Made by a program: the position numbers and the translations under genes
Part shown: positions 10,228 through 37,839 of the stretch, piece by piece
How the letters are laid out: every line of letters starts with the position of its first letter
Numbering within the stretch: the first letter of the stretch is position 1
The notes under the pieces: generated by a model
Seen by the model: only the letters and a program-made list of their open reading frames with translations
Database searches by the model: none
Told to the model about the DNA's origin: nothing
Assembly (NCBI GenBank): GCA_964390495.1
Contig: CAYMIN010000011.1
Span: 29,701 to 93,700, forward strand
DNA from: an uncultured Armatimonadia bacterium
GTDB lineage: Bacteria > Armatimonadota > Zipacnadia > Zipacnadales > UBA11051
DNA length: 64,000 nt
Direction: 5' to 3'

Positions 10228-10980
10228 GTGAGAATCATGCTTATAGACTTCCACGCCCATGTACAGGATGACGACGAGGGCACCCGTGCCGACGAGATGG
10301 TGCGCGAGGCCCGGCGCATCGGCATTGATTACATCGGCATCAGCGAGCCGGTGACCCACAGCCGCGACAGCCTGGAGGTCGTCCAGCGCCAGAATGACCT
10401 GGTCTTCCGTACCTACGAGCGCTACCCCGACTTCTTCATCCCGCTGGTCTATACCCACGCCAATCTCGGCCAGGCGGCGCTGGACGAAGTCCACAAGGGC
10501 TTCGACCGCGGGGCCAGAGGCATCAAGATGGAGGTTGCGACGGTGATTACCGACAAGTGCGTCGAACCGATCATCGAGGAGGCCATCGCCCGTGACGTGG
10601 CGCTGCTGCAGCACAGTTGGCACAAGGTCACCGGCAACTACCCCTTCGAGACCGATGGCGTCCACTGTGCCGAGATCGGCCGCCGCTACCCGGAGCTCAA
10701 GCTCGTCATGGCCCACATCAGTGGCGATAACCGCTGGGGCATCCGCGCCATCCGCGACGTGCCCTCGGTCTATACCGACTGCAGCGGCTCGATCGCCGAC
10801 TACGGTCACATCGAGTATTGCGTCGAGCAACTCGGCGCCGACCGCTTGCTCTGGGGCACCGATGCCCGGGGCGCGGATTTCCTCTACACCTTAGCCAAGG
10901 TCCGCGACAGCCACCTCAGCGACGAAGCCAAGGCCAAGGTCCTGGGCCTCAACGCCGCCAAGCTGCTGAAAGTGGTCTGA
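10228..10980 (+). CDS. Amidohydrolase family 2 protein, canonical metal ligands
   Basis: DFHAH, GIKM, LQHS, MAHI and WGTD all present; alternative start at 10237. Confidence 0.88.
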   Translation: MRIMLIDFHAHVQDDDEGTRADEMVREARRIGIDYIGISEPVTHSRDSLEVVQRQNDLVFRTYERYPDFFIPLVYTHANLGQAALDEVHKGFDRGARGIKMEVATVITDKCVEPIIEEAIARDVALLQHSWHKVTGNYPFETDGVHCAEIGRRYPELKLVMAHISGDNRWGIRAIRDVPSVYTDCSGSIADYGHIEYCVEQLGADRLLWGTDARGADFLYTLAKVRDSHLSDEAKAKVLGLNAAKLLKVV

Positions 10981-10987
10981 AGATTCC

Positions 10988-11794
10988 ATGGCCGTCCACA
11001 AAATGGAGAAAGCGACGATAACCATGATTGACTTCTGTTGCGACATCGGGAATTACGCCTTTCGCGAATGGCCCGCCGATGATACCGCCGGCACGCTTGC
11101 GCTGATGGACCGGGCCGGCATTGATTTGGCGGTCGTCGGCAGCATTGACGCCATCACCTACGTCAGCCCGCACCCGGCCAACGAGCGGCTGATGGCCGAC
11201 CTCCAGGCCAACGATCCCGACAGCCGGCTGATACCCTATACGACCCTCAGCCCGGTCTATCCCGGCGTCGAGCGCGATATGGAGGAAAGCCGCGAGCTAG
11301 GCTTCCGCGGCCTGAAGCTCTATCCGAGCTACCACGGCTATCAGATTGACGATCCGCCGGCACTCAGGCTGATCGAGATGGCCACAGGCTGGGGCTGGCC
11401 GGTGATAGTCACCGTGCGCATCGAGGACGAGCGCCACCACCACCCGCTGATGAAGGTCAAGCCGGTCCCGCTCGAGAGCATCATGTGGGCGGCCCGGCAG
11501 CTTCCCGAGGCCACCATCATCCTCAGCGCCGGCAACAGCGCCGGGACGCCGCGCTTCCTGGAGCAGACCCGCGATCTGCCCAACGTCTATGCCGAGCTGT
11601 CTTACGTCAAGGGACCGCTACGGGCGCTGGAGATTCTGGTGGAGAGGTTTGGCAGCGAGCGGATGCTCTTGGGCACGCACATGCCGTTTGTCTATCCCGG
11701 CTGCGGGATCGCCAAGATCGCCGAGGCTGACATCTCCGAGGCGGCTAAGCAGGCGATCCTGGAGGGCAACGCCGCACACATTCTCGGATTGTGA
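10988..11794 (+). CDS. Amidohydrolase-fold protein lacking metal ligands (putative pseudoenzyme partner)
   Basis: TIM-barrel pattern retained (GIDLAVV, GLKLYP, FGSERMLLGT, ILEGNAAHIL), but HxH is replaced by CCD, both later His are absent, and the catalytic Asp is replaced (GTH). Confidence 0.8.
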   Translation: MAVHKMEKATITMIDFCCDIGNYAFREWPADDTAGTLALMDRAGIDLAVVGSIDAITYVSPHPANERLMADLQANDPDSRLIPYTTLSPVYPGVERDMEESRELGFRGLKLYPSYHGYQIDDPPALRLIEMATGWGWPVIVTVRIEDERHHHPLMKVKPVPLESIMWAARQLPEATIILSAGNSAGTPRFLEQTRDLPNVYAELSYVKGPLRALEILVERFGSERMLLGTHMPFVYPGCGIAKIAEADISEAAKQAILEGNAAHILGL

Positions 11795-30941: not shown

Positions 30942-33701
30942 CTACATTCCGCCAATCGGCGTTTCCACCTGCGTGGCAGTGCGCACGGTGGGGTCGCCGG
31001 CCTCATCGTAGCTGATCAAGGTCGAGCCGGCAATGTAGAAAGTATTGGTGCCGGGTATCACGCGGTGCGGGAAATAGACTTGTCTAGTCTCGTCTGGCGT
31101 GATTTCGAGGCCGGGCTCGTCGAGGACGTGAATCACCGTAGTATCGCCGACACGCTCGACGCGGTCAATGGTGTAGCCGTGGGCGGTGGTATCGCCGTGG
31201 GTAATGACCATAGTCTCGCCCGCCAGCTCGACATCGGTCGGCAGTTGCACAGGGGTAAGGAAGGCATCATTCTCGTCACCGGCTTCCCGGCGCTGCACGC
31301 CGGTGATGTCGCCGGTCAGCGGCCCGGCGGTCTTGATATGCAACTGACCCAGCTTCAGTTCCGCGCCGTCGAGAATATACGCCCACTTGACCTCGCCGCC
31401 CTGCAACCGCAGATGAGCCAGCCGGCCCCGGAAGCTGAGATTGGCCGCCGGCACCAGGACCTCCTGCTCGTACGGGGCCTGCTCGTTGGTGCTGATGAGA
31501 TAGTCGGTGATGTCGCCGCTGCGCACGGCCAGCGCCACGCAGTTCTCAGGCCCTGCGACGGCCAACTGCTCAACACTGTCAATGCAGGTGGTCTCGAAAT
31601 AGGGTTCGTGTACCGCCACGAAGGTGCTGCTGAGCGGTTCTACCGGCTCTGCCCCTGCCTCAGCGGGTGTGCCCCGGCGGACGGCGATAATCGGCATCCA
31701 GAGGTCGTGAATTGTGGATTCATCGCGTTGCGCTCCGCGGATTGAGGGGCACATGCCGGTGATGACGCGGGTGCCGGCGGCGCCCAGCACATGGGTCTTG
31801 AGGGCGGTACCGTCGGCGCAGGTCAGGGTCATCTCCCAGGGGCCGTCAGTCACAGTCTGCTGCAGGTCTTTGATATGCGTGTAGAGCGTGCCTGCCAGCG
31901 GCGCAAATCGCAGGCTGGTAGTCAGGGCCTGATTCTCGTTGGCATAGCCGTGCTCCATCCAGTCGTGGACCGAGCCGCCCTTGACCCGGAAAACGTCGAA
32001 GAGATAAGAATCGTGCTCGCCGACGCGGGCCAGCACCAGGGCGCGCTTGTAAAGCTCGGCCTTGCCCTCGTAGCGGGTGGTGCCATCGGCCTCGACGGCG
32101 AAGACCTGTGGGCCCTTGGTGGCGAAGAGGCCGAGCCGCCCCAGAACGCCGCCGCCTTGATTGGTCTGGTCAATGACAACCGTATTGTGGCCGGAGGTGC
32201 CGGAGCTCCAGCCGCGCAGGCTGGTGCGGCAGTAGCCGAACTCGGAGAGCAGCTCCTTGCCCTTGGCGTGGAATATGATGTTGAGGGTGTCGCGGTGATC
32301 GTGGCCGGAAGCGCCGCCATAGTGCAAGTGGGCCTGGACCTGGTCGTCGCCCTCGCCCATACCCAGGATAGCGTGCCCCATGCCGGGCAGGATCAGACAC
32401 TCGGACTTGGTGCGGGCCAGCGGCCAGCAGACCTTGTTCCAGTCACAGTCATGGGTCACAGCGTAGTAGCTGCGCTGATTCTTGCCCATAGGCAGCGCCA
32501 GCTTGACGACACAGGTGACCGCGCGATTAAGCGCCGGGATGTCGCGCTGCATGCGCAGGTCATCGTAGCGTTCGCCGGTCTTCTCGTAGGTATAGCCGGG
32601 TGGGTCGGTATGGCCGTCGGCGAGGTCGGGAACCATCGCCAAGCGGTTGGTAATCTGGCGATGATAACACGCCGTGCCTTCATGCCACATCCCGTCATAG
32701 AAGTAGCTTTTCTCCAGGATTCCCTTGAACCAGCCGACGGCGTAGTGGATCCAGTCGGGCTCACCCAGCACGCGACCGGCGACGATGAGGCCCATGATGC
32801 AGTTCCCATCCATGTTGCCCCAGAACTTGGGATACTTTTGGAGGCTCTCCACACAGGCGCGCAGGAGGTCCTTCTCGACGAGTTGCCTGGTCCCGTCGCC
32901 GAGCTCTTCATAGGCGCCGCTGTCGCAGATTAAGTCGTGAGCGTTGAACGGTCCCATCGGAACATTGCCGTAGAACCAGCGGCTCCATTTGCCGGCCCAG
33001 TAGGGCATGGAGCCTGCATAGTCAGGCGCGCAGATCTTGGAGTCGTAGAAGGCGCTGCCCTGCTGACCTGCGCCGGGCTTTATCTGGATGTCCTGCCACG
33101 GCGACACGCTGTGATTATCGTAGCCGCGGATGGGATAGCCGGGGAAAACCTCGGCAAAACGGCGCAGAATCACGGCTGATTTGTGCGCATACTGCGGCTC
33201 CTTGGTGACATGGTAAAGCAGGGCCAGGTCGTAAGCGCGGGCGGCGAAGTAGCCCTTGATGGAGCCGCGGATTCTGGCATCCCAGAAATACGTGCGCCCA
33301 TCTTCGGCCTGGTGGTAGTGATACTCCTGCTCCTGGCCGAGGGGGTTGACTATGGTGAGCGTTTTGTCCATCGGATACTTCTCGCTGGGATAGACCTGGC
33401 CGCAGTGGGTGCACTTGATCTGGTAAGGGTTGTCTATGCTCCACTCGAAAGTGGCGGAGCGGCCACCTTCAGCCCCGCCGCGACAGTTCTCGCAGCCGAC
33501 AATGCTGAAATCGGTCTTGTCCGAGATGAACTGCGAGATCTCCTCATCGCTCATCGCCATGACCTTGGCGACGCTCTCTTTGAGCTTGGCCTCGTCGCCG
33601 GTCGGGTTGTAAACCGGGTGCTGTACCTCGTAGGCACAGCCGGCGGTGACCGCCAATAGCAAAAGCGCTGCCACAACGGTCGGCTTCAGCAGGATGGTCA
33701 T
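30942..33701 (-). CDS. Heparinase II/III family protein (exported, possible lipoprotein) with N-terminal CxxC...CxxC module
   Basis: DGMWHEGTACYH, HYGGASGHDHRDTLNI, SGHNTVVID, YLFDVFRVKGGSVHDW; signal ending TAG-C. Confidence 0.82.
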   Translation of the reverse strand: MTILLKPTVVAALLLLAVTAGCAYEVQHPVYNPTGDEAKLKESVAKVMAMSDEEISQFISDKTDFSIVGCENCRGGAEGGRSATFEWSIDNPYQIKCTHCGQVYPSEKYPMDKTLTIVNPLGQEQEYHYHQAEDGRTYFWDARIRGSIKGYFAARAYDLALLYHVTKEPQYAHKSAVILRRFAEVFPGYPIRGYDNHSVSPWQDIQIKPGAGQQGSAFYDSKICAPDYAGSMPYWAGKWSRWFYGNVPMGPFNAHDLICDSGAYEELGDGTRQLVEKDLLRACVESLQKYPKFWGNMDGNCIMGLIVAGRVLGEPDWIHYAVGWFKGILEKSYFYDGMWHEGTACYHRQITNRLAMVPDLADGHTDPPGYTYEKTGERYDDLRMQRDIPALNRAVTCVVKLALPMGKNQRSYYAVTHDCDWNKVCWPLARTKSECLILPGMGHAILGMGEGDDQVQAHLHYGGASGHDHRDTLNIIFHAKGKELLSEFGYCRTSLRGWSSGTSGHNTVVIDQTNQGGGVLGRLGLFATKGPQVFAVEADGTTRYEGKAELYKRALVLARVGEHDSYLFDVFRVKGGSVHDWMEHGYANENQALTTSLRFAPLAGTLYTHIKDLQQTVTDGPWEMTLTCADGTALKTHVLGAAGTRVITGMCPSIRGAQRDESTIHDLWMPIIAVRRGTPAEAGAEPVEPLSSTFVAVHEPYFETTCIDSVEQLAVAGPENCVALAVRSGDITDYLISTNEQAPYEQEVLVPAANLSFRGRLAHLRLQGGEVKWAYILDGAELKLGQLHIKTAGPLTGDITGVQRREAGDENDAFLTPVQLPTDVELAGETMVITHGDTTAHGYTIDRVERVGDTTVIHVLDEPGLEITPDETRQVYFPHRVIPGTNTFYIAGSTLISYDEAGDPTVRTATQVETPIGGM

Positions 33702-36174: not shown

Positions 36175-36954
36175 CTAGATATCCAGGAGTTTGGCGAGGT
36201 TCTCGCCGAGGATCTTCTGCTTGTTTTCCTCCGAGGTCTCGATGTGCTGCATCTTCAGGAACGCCGGTCCCGGATACTTCATCGGGATGCCGGTTCCGAA
36301 CAGCACGCGCTCGGCCCCCATGGCCTCGATGACCTGCTTCATCTCCTTGCCGATGAACACCGAGCTGCGCGAGATCTCGACGTAGCAGTTCCCCGGCAGT
36401 GTGTCAGCTTCAGTGACAAAGCGCGAGCCGGCAAAGCCTGCCCCGTTGAGGATCATGAAGTTGACCTCAGGATGGTCCGCGCAAAGTTGGGCTATATCAT
36501 TGAGCACCAAATCCGGGGCGTCAACCATCCAGTGGCTCTGGCGGTAGTCCACCTGGCGCTGGATCAACGTGACCACCAGCCCACGCTCCTGACAGGCCTG
36601 GCACAGCTCGGCGCAGCAACTGTCGGCCAGCGTGTAGTTGTGGTACTGCGGATAGATGCGGATGCCCTTGGTACCCATCTCATTGAGGCACCAGTCGAGG
36701 TCATACTCCCAATCCGCATAGTCGGGATTGATGACCCCGAACGGCACCAGGCGGTCGCGGTAATCGGCGATCTCTTCGGCAAGCTCCTCGTTGCCCGGCT
36801 GGCTGTTGCGGTACATGATCGCTGAGAGCGAGCCGACACAGGCCTTGTCTATATTGTTTTCGTCCATCAAGGCCACCAGTTCCGGGGCGGTATTGTGCCT
36901 AATCTGGCGGGCAAACCAGTGGCCGAGATATGCGTTGCTGTCGAATGTCATCAC
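36175..36954 (-). CDS. Amidohydrolase-fold protein lacking metal ligands (putative pseudoenzyme partner)
   Basis: HxH is replaced by NAY, Lys by Arg (GIRIYP), both His are absent and the Asp is replaced by Gly (FGTG). Starts immediately after the stop of 36955-37728. Confidence 0.8.
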   Translation of the reverse strand: MMTFDSNAYLGHWFARQIRHNTAPELVALMDENNIDKACVGSLSAIMYRNSQPGNEELAEEIADYRDRLVPFGVINPDYADWEYDLDWCLNEMGTKGIRIYPQYHNYTLADSCCAELCQACQERGLVVTLIQRQVDYRQSHWMVDAPDLVLNDIAQLCADHPEVNFMILNGAGFAGSRFVTEADTLPGNCYVEISRSSVFIGKEMKQVIEAMGAERVLFGTGIPMKYPGPAFLKMQHIETSEENKQKILGENLAKLLDI

Positions 36955-37728
36955 TTACGCCTCCCGTCCTACGAGCTGCAGAAAGTTCTCGCTGGCCATC
37001 TTGTTGCGGTCTTCGTCCGACATCTTGGCGGACATGAACTTGCCTACGCCGGCGGTAACGCTCATATCGGTGGCGAAATAAAGGCGGTCGGCGCCCATTA
37101 TTTCAATGGCGTATTCGACCAGCCCCTCATCGGTGACACTGCCGGAGGTGTCGGCACCGATATTGGGCGAGGCATAACGCAGTGCCTTGGTTTCCCATTC
37201 CCAGTCGCCGCCGCCGCCAAGATGCGCGACAATGACTTTGACTTCCGGGTACTCGCGGCCGAGAGCGACGAAATGGGACGAGTCGCTGATGTTGGGCTGG
37301 GCCTTGGTATTGACGAGAGAGTGCCCCGCATGCTCGAGAATCGGGACATCAAGCTCAATACACTTCTCGATGAGCGGCCGCACGGCCGGGTCATCAATTG
37401 TGTATTCATTATACAGCTTGACACCGACACAGTCCTCGTCCGCTTCCAAACAGCGCTCGACGTCGGCGATGGCCTCTTTCGAGTAACCGGGATTGACGTA
37501 GGCATAACCCCAAAGCCGCCCGCGGAACTCCTTGAGCGCCGCCAGCATGTTCCGGTTGCACTTCTGGAAGCCCTCGATGGTTGCCGGGCGGGGTGTGCCG
37601 AGGTTGGAGACGACGGCGATGTCGATGCCGACGGCATCCATGGCCTCGACGAAAAGCCGGTCCTGTTCCCACGGGTCCTTTTTATCCTCCAAGGGCCCGC
37701 GACAATGTGCGTGTGCGTCAATTAACAT
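36955..37728 (-). CDS. Amidohydrolase family 2 protein, canonical metal ligands
   Basis: DAHAH, GVKL, LEHA, VAHL, FATD. Confidence 0.88.
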   Translation of the reverse strand: MLIDAHAHCRGPLEDKKDPWEQDRLFVEAMDAVGIDIAVVSNLGTPRPATIEGFQKCNRNMLAALKEFRGRLWGYAYVNPGYSKEAIADVERCLEADEDCVGVKLYNEYTIDDPAVRPLIEKCIELDVPILEHAGHSLVNTKAQPNISDSSHFVALGREYPEVKVIVAHLGGGGDWEWETKALRYASPNIGADTSGSVTDEGLVEYAIEIMGADRLYFATDMSVTAGVGKFMSAKMSDEDRNKMASENFLQLVGREA

Positions 37729-37839
37729 GTACGTGCCTCCTTACATTTGTCTGCTATTGCGACAGCTTGGGCTGAACAACTTTGGACGCACCCACGCCTT
37801 TGGCGCGGGTACGGCATGTGTCGCAGAACGGCAACGACT

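Follow-up and report, generated by a model that had tools for sequence, protein, structure and literature searches.

The 64,000-nucleotide stretch of DNA analyzed here (the window), taken from contig CAYMIN010000011.1 of an uncultured Armatimonadia bacterium, contains two consecutive minus-strand genes, A2 (36955..37728) and B2 (36175..36951), that encode paralogous barrels of the amidohydrolase family PF04909, the first with the canonical metal ligands of the family and the second with none of them. We consider it likely that the two proteins are an obligate heteromer, in which a metal-bearing catalytic barrel is joined by a conserved metal-less paralog, and the pair most likely forms an undescribed two-subunit enzyme. 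This interpretation is based on the adjacency of the two genes in 83 of 84 loci, on natural fusions in both orders, on a twin-arginine translocation (Tat) signal found on A proteins only, and on a predicted template modeling score (pTM) of 0.91 for one of the fusions, P0073. The equal conservation of A and B, the mirrored subclades of their trees, the location of the invariant residues of B on the catalytic face, and the precedents offered by AibH1H2 and ACMSD also argue for a complex.

Fold, metal ligands and conserved residues

Both proteins exceed the curated Pfam cut-off for PF04909 (Amidohydro_2, 26.4 bits), A2 (257 aa, N-terminus MLIDAHAHC) with 65.8 bits over residues 3-227 and B2 (258 aa) with 56.3 bits over residues 55-258, and AlphaFold2 (AF2) models each of them as a (beta/alpha)8 barrel with a predicted local distance difference test (pLDDT) score above 90. 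A first-pass annotation of this DNA had recognized a canonical ligand series in A2 (DAHAH, Lys, His, His, Asp) and none in B2, and a comparison of alignment columns confirms both observations. The A2 ligand set comprises H6 and H8 on beta1, K104 on beta4, H133 on beta5, H169 on beta6 and D221 on beta8, all of which, together with the motifs GGGGDWEW (172-178) and SGS (195-197), are at least 97% conserved among 73 orthologs. This is the canonical HxH/His/His/Asp pattern of PF04909, and metal binding by A2 is predicted from it. The column of K104 is also occupied by Lys in most canonical PF04909 paralogs of the genome to which the window belongs (Armatimonadota, labeled G000; hereafter the window genome). 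K104 might be the carbamylated bridging lysine of a binuclear site, which the series H-x-H, K, H, H, D would fit.

At the columns of A2 H6, H8, K104, H133, H169 and D221, B2 carries N, Y, R, D/R, N and G. N6 and Y8 stand in place of HxH, D135 and R137 in place of the beta5 His, N169 in place of the beta6 His and G220 in place of the beta8 Asp, a set of replacements by which B2 can be classed as a member of the fold but not as a canonical metalloenzyme. Its conserved residues are nonetheless numerous: D4, Y8, G10, R15, N54, E55, R67, N75, P76, Y78, W81, D84, R98, Y100, P101, H104, Y106, D135, R137, Q138, D147, N188, S194, R215 and G219 are invariant in 73 orthologs, and the invariant residues of B, about 30 in all, map in the AF2 model to the C-terminal ends of the beta-strands, which form the catalytic face. 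The motifs G.(Y/W)..R, YP.YH.Y and D.R..H, previously noted as common to B2 and to B1, its counterpart in a second module of the window, are present in both proteins and invariant in the 73 B2 orthologs.

B as a conserved class

The loss of every canonical metal ligand might suggest that B2 is a functionless, decaying duplicate of A2. Against this reading, to which we give practically no credence, stand the intact frame of B2, the invariance of some 30 residues across phyla, and a ratio of nonsynonymous to synonymous substitution rates (dN/dS) of 0.07-0.19 for B relative to its closest relatives, similar to that of A (0.05-0.15). Over 73 rows, consisting of 72 paired orthologs and the window pair, pairwise identity averages 57.9% among the B proteins and 59.5% among the A proteins, and the pairwise identities of the two proteins are correlated (r = 0.87). 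At least 547 clusters at 50% identity match the B profile at E <= 1e-30 in a search of 1.84 billion cluster representatives, and both beta1 His residues are missing in nearly all of the top 150 cluster matches. Decay is therefore excluded, and the earlier proposal that the ligand-less proteins form a conserved class rather than decaying copies is borne out by a dN/dS near 0.1 and by the similar conservation of both partners.

Paralogous modules and mirrored phylogeny

PF04909 is markedly expanded in the window genome, with 40 domains in 4.1 Mb. Nine of these domains are ligand-less and all nine are adjacent or fused to a canonical domain, which shows that the pairing is not due to chance; the genome thus holds nine modules composed of a canonical and a ligand-less domain. 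One of them, module 1, lies in the same window on the plus strand, where A1 (10228..10980) and B1 (10988..11794) are respectively 32% identical to A2 and 31% identical to B2, the pair of module 2. The nine ligand-less domains form a single group (ultrafast bootstrap 94; Shimodaira-Hasegawa-like approximate likelihood ratio test, SH-aLRT, 89) with three subclades that are mirrored by the partner subunits. When orthologs and the halves of fusion proteins were included in an 83-row tree, all 32 ligand-less domains again grouped together (SH-aLRT 89) and the branching of the B2 orthologs repeated that of the A2 orthologs. The mirrored groups are the window with loci L014, L034 and L027; L010 with L021; and L030 with L051, L068, L053, L041 and L063, with L075 outside. 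The two trees agree with what the first-pass annotation anticipated, namely that the ligand-less proteins would be one clade and would have co-evolved with their partners. Since B1 and B2 fall within one subclade (SH-aLRT 95), modules 1 and 2 are old duplicates of the whole pair, now 31-32% identical.

The family has two further loci of note in this genome. Five canonical PF04909 genes lie in tandem at C2:205119-209839 on the minus strand, and a 794-aa open reading frame (ORF) at C30:3553-5937, also on the minus strand, combines a canonical PF04909 domain with a C-terminal half that resembles a class III aminotransferase, by eye and not by Pfam.

Gene organization and translational coupling

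Both ORFs lie where they had first been placed, with the correction that the module is on the minus strand. A2 is preceded by a Shine-Dalgarno sequence, AAGGAGG (37736..37742), 7 nt before its ATG, and ends with a TAA stop (36955..36957) that is followed by GTG (36954-36952) and then by ATG (36951-36949), so that the junction reads GGGAGG CG TAA GTG ATG ACA. The GTG indeed abuts the TAA, as was first reported, and its use as a start codon would give B2 259 aa (36175..36954). The conserved start, however, is the ATG one codon later. The codon that separates the stop from the ATG varies among eight close relatives (GTG, ATG, CAG, ATA, AAG or GAG), whereas the ATG and the upstream GGGAGG, a Shine-Dalgarno sequence within the 3' end of A2 (36960..36965) and 8 nt before the ATG, are retained in all eight. 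Gene callers also begin B2 at the ATG, which makes it almost certainly the true start. A start one codon after the stop still amounts to tight coupling, and such coupling would set a fixed A2:B2 ratio, in keeping with the suggestion that the two are stoichiometric subunits. A scan for promoters and terminators returned nothing exceeding shuffled expectation.

Synteny, host range and gene fusions

We examined synteny in 80 loci from species-representative genomes and in six further Pfam-annotated contigs. In all 78 genome loci whose sequence extends far enough in the 5' direction, the gene immediately preceding B, in the same orientation, is an A ortholog, and this is also the case in five of the six contigs. 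The two genes are closely packed: 36 of 76 pairs show a 4-nt overlap between the stop of A and the start of B, 16 of the 76 share the 3-nt spacing of the window pair, and a gap of at most 4 nt or an overlap is found in 68 of the 76. The hosts belong to at least nine phyla (Armatimonadota, Planctomycetota, Verrucomicrobiota, Latescibacterota, WS1, Acidobacteriota, Chloroflexota, Bacteroidota, Poribacteria and Bathyarchaeota), and the closest relative of the window is a Candidatus Zipacnadia genome (91% identity). Distribution within Armatimonadota is patchy (22 of 151 genomes), which indicates an accessory module. At five loci (L006, L009, L027, L069 and L086) the pair is joined by an additional A-type gene (A-A-B or A-B-A) or is itself present twice in tandem, and the module is therefore still undergoing local duplication.

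Natural single-chain fusions occur in both orders within the module 2 subclade, A-to-B in P0073, P0093, P0136, P0165, P0168 and P0175, and B-to-A in P0144, P0184 and P0195. The window genome itself encodes two B-to-A fusions, both on the minus strand, at C12:85211-86872 (553 aa) and C6:51403-53118 (571 aa), each with a ligand-less N-terminal barrel and a canonical C-terminal barrel, the opposite order to that of the window pairs. An apparent A-B fusion at L076 was rejected, since it stems from a stretch of N in the record.

A Tat-type signal on A orthologs

An [ST]RRxFL motif followed by a hydrophobic stretch and an Ala-rich end is present at the N-terminus of A in 28 of 34 Planctomycetota orthologs, in five of five from Verrucomicrobiota and in one of two from Acidobacteriota. 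None of the B orthologs carries such a signal; their beta1 strand begins at residue 2-4, often overlapping the A stop, and B cannot have a signal because it starts directly with this strand. In the B-to-A fusions P0144 and P0195, one Tat signal serves both domains. In Tat hitchhiker complexes, such as the small and large subunits of hydrogenases or DmsAB, the twin-arginine signal is carried by one subunit and the partner is exported within the folded complex. The A and B orthologs resemble these systems in that a single subunit bears the signal (34 A orthologs, no B); they differ in that the case is made from sequence, in orthologs of other phyla, and in that A2 of the window has no signal peptide. 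As the signal is found only on A, it would imply that B is exported with A, and the simplest interpretation is that a folded A-B complex would be exported in Planctomycetota and Verrucomicrobiota. The window enzyme, with its signal-less A2, is predicted to be cytoplasmic.

Structure prediction of the pair and alternative interpretations

The natural A-to-B fusion P0073, folded by AF2 from an alignment of paired and unpaired orthologs, gave a mean pLDDT of 89.8 with the high pTM cited above, and disorder was confined to the linker (281-293) and one loop. In this model the two barrels adopt a confident mutual arrangement.

Several observations weigh against the heteromer. The window pair read through its stop (TAA as Q; P0050), folded with a block-and-paired alignment, yielded a pLDDT of 93.4 and a pTM of 0.63 only, and the orientation of its barrels is not confident; the linker in this construct is a few residues long, and its shortness is probably the cause of the low pTM, which we do not read as contradicting the complex. 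The Pfam TAT_signal profile scores 16-22 bits on the A orthologs, below its curated cut-off of 22.7, and for this reason the Tat call is based on the motif and the hydrophobic region that can be seen in the sequences. One orphan B (P0021, L085:7001-7795, 54% identical to B2) is encoded on an 11-kb contig that contains no A. Fusion and adjacency are also seen between enzymes of consecutive pathway steps, and the strong conservation of the barrel mouth of B would be expected of an active second site no less than of a passive partner.

Some of these points lead to the main rival explanation, according to which A2 and B2 are separate enzymes that catalyze consecutive steps of a pathway and are co-expressed without forming a stable complex, B2 acting independently of metal through a pocket of Asp, Tyr, Arg and His. 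Adjacency, coupling and fusion occur between pathway neighbors as well, the barrel mouth of B is as conserved as that of A, and there is one orphan B. On the other hand, a Tat signal restricted to A would split the two steps between compartments, the co-duplication of nine paralog pairs in one genome and the mirrored trees fit subunits better, and the pTM of the natural fusion speaks for a defined packing of the two barrels. We therefore regard consecutive enzymes as improbable, and a heteromer of A2 and B2 as the better explanation.

Comparison with known systems

Our literature search returned no description of this pair, and AibH1H2 is the only heteromer of two PF04909 paralogs that we found described, aside from which only related oxygenases come close. 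AibH1H2, the 2-aminoisobutyrate hydroxylase of Rhodococcus wratislaviensis, is an (alpha-beta)2 heterotetramer encoded by adjacent PF04909 paralogs of ~28% identity, in which catalysis is confined to one subunit and no role has been assigned to the auxiliary one (PMC7782822, PMC10401708). AibH2 contains a dinuclear Mn/Fe site with six ligands and depends on a Rieske ferredoxin and a reductase whose genes are adjacent, while AibH1 keeps a mononuclear metal site that binds Zn or Mn (PMC7782822, PMC10401708).

The possibility that A2 and B2 are such an amidohydrolase-related dinuclear oxygenase with an auxiliary subunit is suggested by the common architecture, two adjacent PF04909 paralogs ~25-30% identical with one catalytic and one auxiliary member, a division of labor which for A2 and B2 would follow from the proposed heteromer. 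We nevertheless consider it very unlikely, since four lines of evidence speak against membership. First, kinship is not apparent: AibH1, AibH2 and PtmU3 are not among the PDB profile matches of A (E <= 10) or of B (E <= 1), nor among the top 50 Foldseek matches. Second, the surroundings of the module, both in the window and in the six Pfam-annotated loci, contain no Rieske ferredoxin or reductase genes. Third, B2 has no metal ligands, in contrast to the auxiliary, metal-binding AibH1. Fourth, the subunits are a third smaller (~257 aa versus ~375 aa). AibH1H2 is thus an analogous architecture rather than a close relative.

The nearest solved relatives of both subunits are gamma-resorcylate decarboxylase, LigW, ACMSD and LigJ (profile E ~1e-10; Foldseek E ~1e-13), to which they are 15-20% identical; both also resemble the small uncharacterized barrel 3cjp. 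These enzymes of the decarboxylase/hydratase branch of PF04909 are oligomers, but unlike the pair proposed here they are homo-oligomeric, with a metal site in every subunit, and they are longer (~330-370 aa), with insertions that are absent from A2 and B2. According to the title of PDB entry 4ifk, an Arg from the neighboring subunit is essential for catalysis in ACMSD, and by analogy this residue acting in trans is a plausible model for the need of a metal-less partner.

Barrels of the amidohydrolase superfamily that have lost their metal ligands are known to persist as structural or regulatory partners, as do PyrC', the inactive dihydroorotase-like subunit of Pseudomonas aspartate transcarbamoylase, and CRMP. 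B2 is ligand-less like them, yet PyrC' and CRMP belong to the PF01979 branch, and their partner is a non-homologous enzyme instead of a paralog.

In the model that we favor, A2 and B2 form a hetero-oligomeric enzyme built from two paralogous (beta/alpha)8 amidohydrolase-fold barrels. In such an enzyme, A2 would bind one or more divalent metals through H6/H8, H133, H169, D221 and possibly K104, and would perform the chemistry; by analogy with the nearest solved relatives, it would hydrolyze, hydrate or decarboxylate a small substrate that bears a carboxylate. B2, unable to bind metal in the canonical manner and retaining an invariant face rich in Arg, Tyr, Asp and His at the barrel mouth, would act as an obligate partner that stabilizes A2, with a probable role in completing or gating the active site or in substrate binding. 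The complex would be cytoplasmic in the window genome and would be exported in its folded state, by means of the signal on A, in Planctomycetota and Verrucomicrobiota.

Gene neighborhood and substrate clues

Downstream of the module in the window lies a minus-strand gene for a 919-aa heparinase II/III-like lipoprotein (30942..33701; Pfam Hepar_II_III_C, 2.8e-9; lipoprotein-type signal), and between the two is a URO-D-like gene (PF01208; 33735-34877, minus strand). PurN and an RfbB-like dehydratase are the other neighbors, in a synteny restricted to close relatives. A heparinase II/III-like protein of ~900 aa with an N-terminal CxxC...CxxC recurs next to A/B or a few genes away in four phyla (Armatimonadota, Planctomycetota, Verrucomicrobiota and Bacteroidota). 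The copy at L081:4312-7023, directly upstream of A, shows 33% identity along its entire length, and others are found at L083:7855-10566 and in L004, L025, L055, L059, L066 and L080. This protein is a possible functional associate of the pair. Relatives of the URO-D-like gene occur near A/B in 10 of the 80 genome loci, among them L070 (Planctomycetaceae) and L077 (Poribacteria), which represent distant phyla. Because heparinase II/III-like and URO-D-like genes recur in this way, the context points loosely to the catabolism of an acidic or N-acylated glycan, a suggestion that we treat as a lead only.

No neighbor gene is universally conserved across these loci: the commonest clusters (CPBP protease, DNA methylase, URO-D-like, PurN, ceramidase-like, helicase and RfbB) are each found in at most 12 of the 80, with ceramidase-like neighbors in eight. 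In Lunatimonas sp. (Bacteroidota; L083:1-14786), A and B reside within a SusC/SusD polysaccharide-utilization locus that also holds three Ceramidase_alk genes, a DegT aminotransferase and an esterase. At L082:9165-13147, hydantoinase A/B (oxoprolinase-type) genes come after the pair, together with an asparaginase-2 gene, and the flanking genes of the orphan B of L085 are of the AP_endonuc_2 (xylose-isomerase-like) and GH123-like types, the latter represented by one gene. An NCBIfam scan gave no meaningful match, and the lack of any match in a PADLOC scan indicates that the module is not a known defense system.

A more ambitious proposal, possible but on balance doubtful, combines these elements. 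B would be no passive scaffold, and its invariant, metal-free pocket of D4, N6, Y8, R15, R98, Y100, H104, Y106, D135, R137 and E192 would combine with A into a composite site or a second, non-canonical one, for catalysis or binding. The A-B pair would be a widespread, unrecognized enzyme of glycan catabolism that acts beside the ~900-aa heparinase II/III-like protein and is exported folded through the Tat pathway, with B as the hitchhiker, in bacteria of the Planctomycetota-Verrucomicrobiota-Chlamydiota (PVC) group.

Implications for the PF04909 family

Proteins of PF04909 are usually annotated as a single-subunit "amidohydrolase family protein". The modules described here point to a large subgroup, spread across phyla, in which a canonical member is accompanied by a ligand-less one. 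The Tat-type signal confined to A in Planctomycetota and Verrucomicrobiota and the confident AF2 packing of a natural A-B fusion are new observations. If the heteromer is real, members of this subgroup expressed singly may be inactive or insoluble, and the hydrolase label that is automatically given to the ligand-less partner would be misleading. The Tat pattern offers a simple genetic test of complex formation, and the recurrent heparinase II/III-like neighbor would be a first handle on the substrate. The pair, duplicated repeatedly in nature, would also offer a system in which to study the co-evolution of a pseudoenzyme paralog with its catalytic partner.

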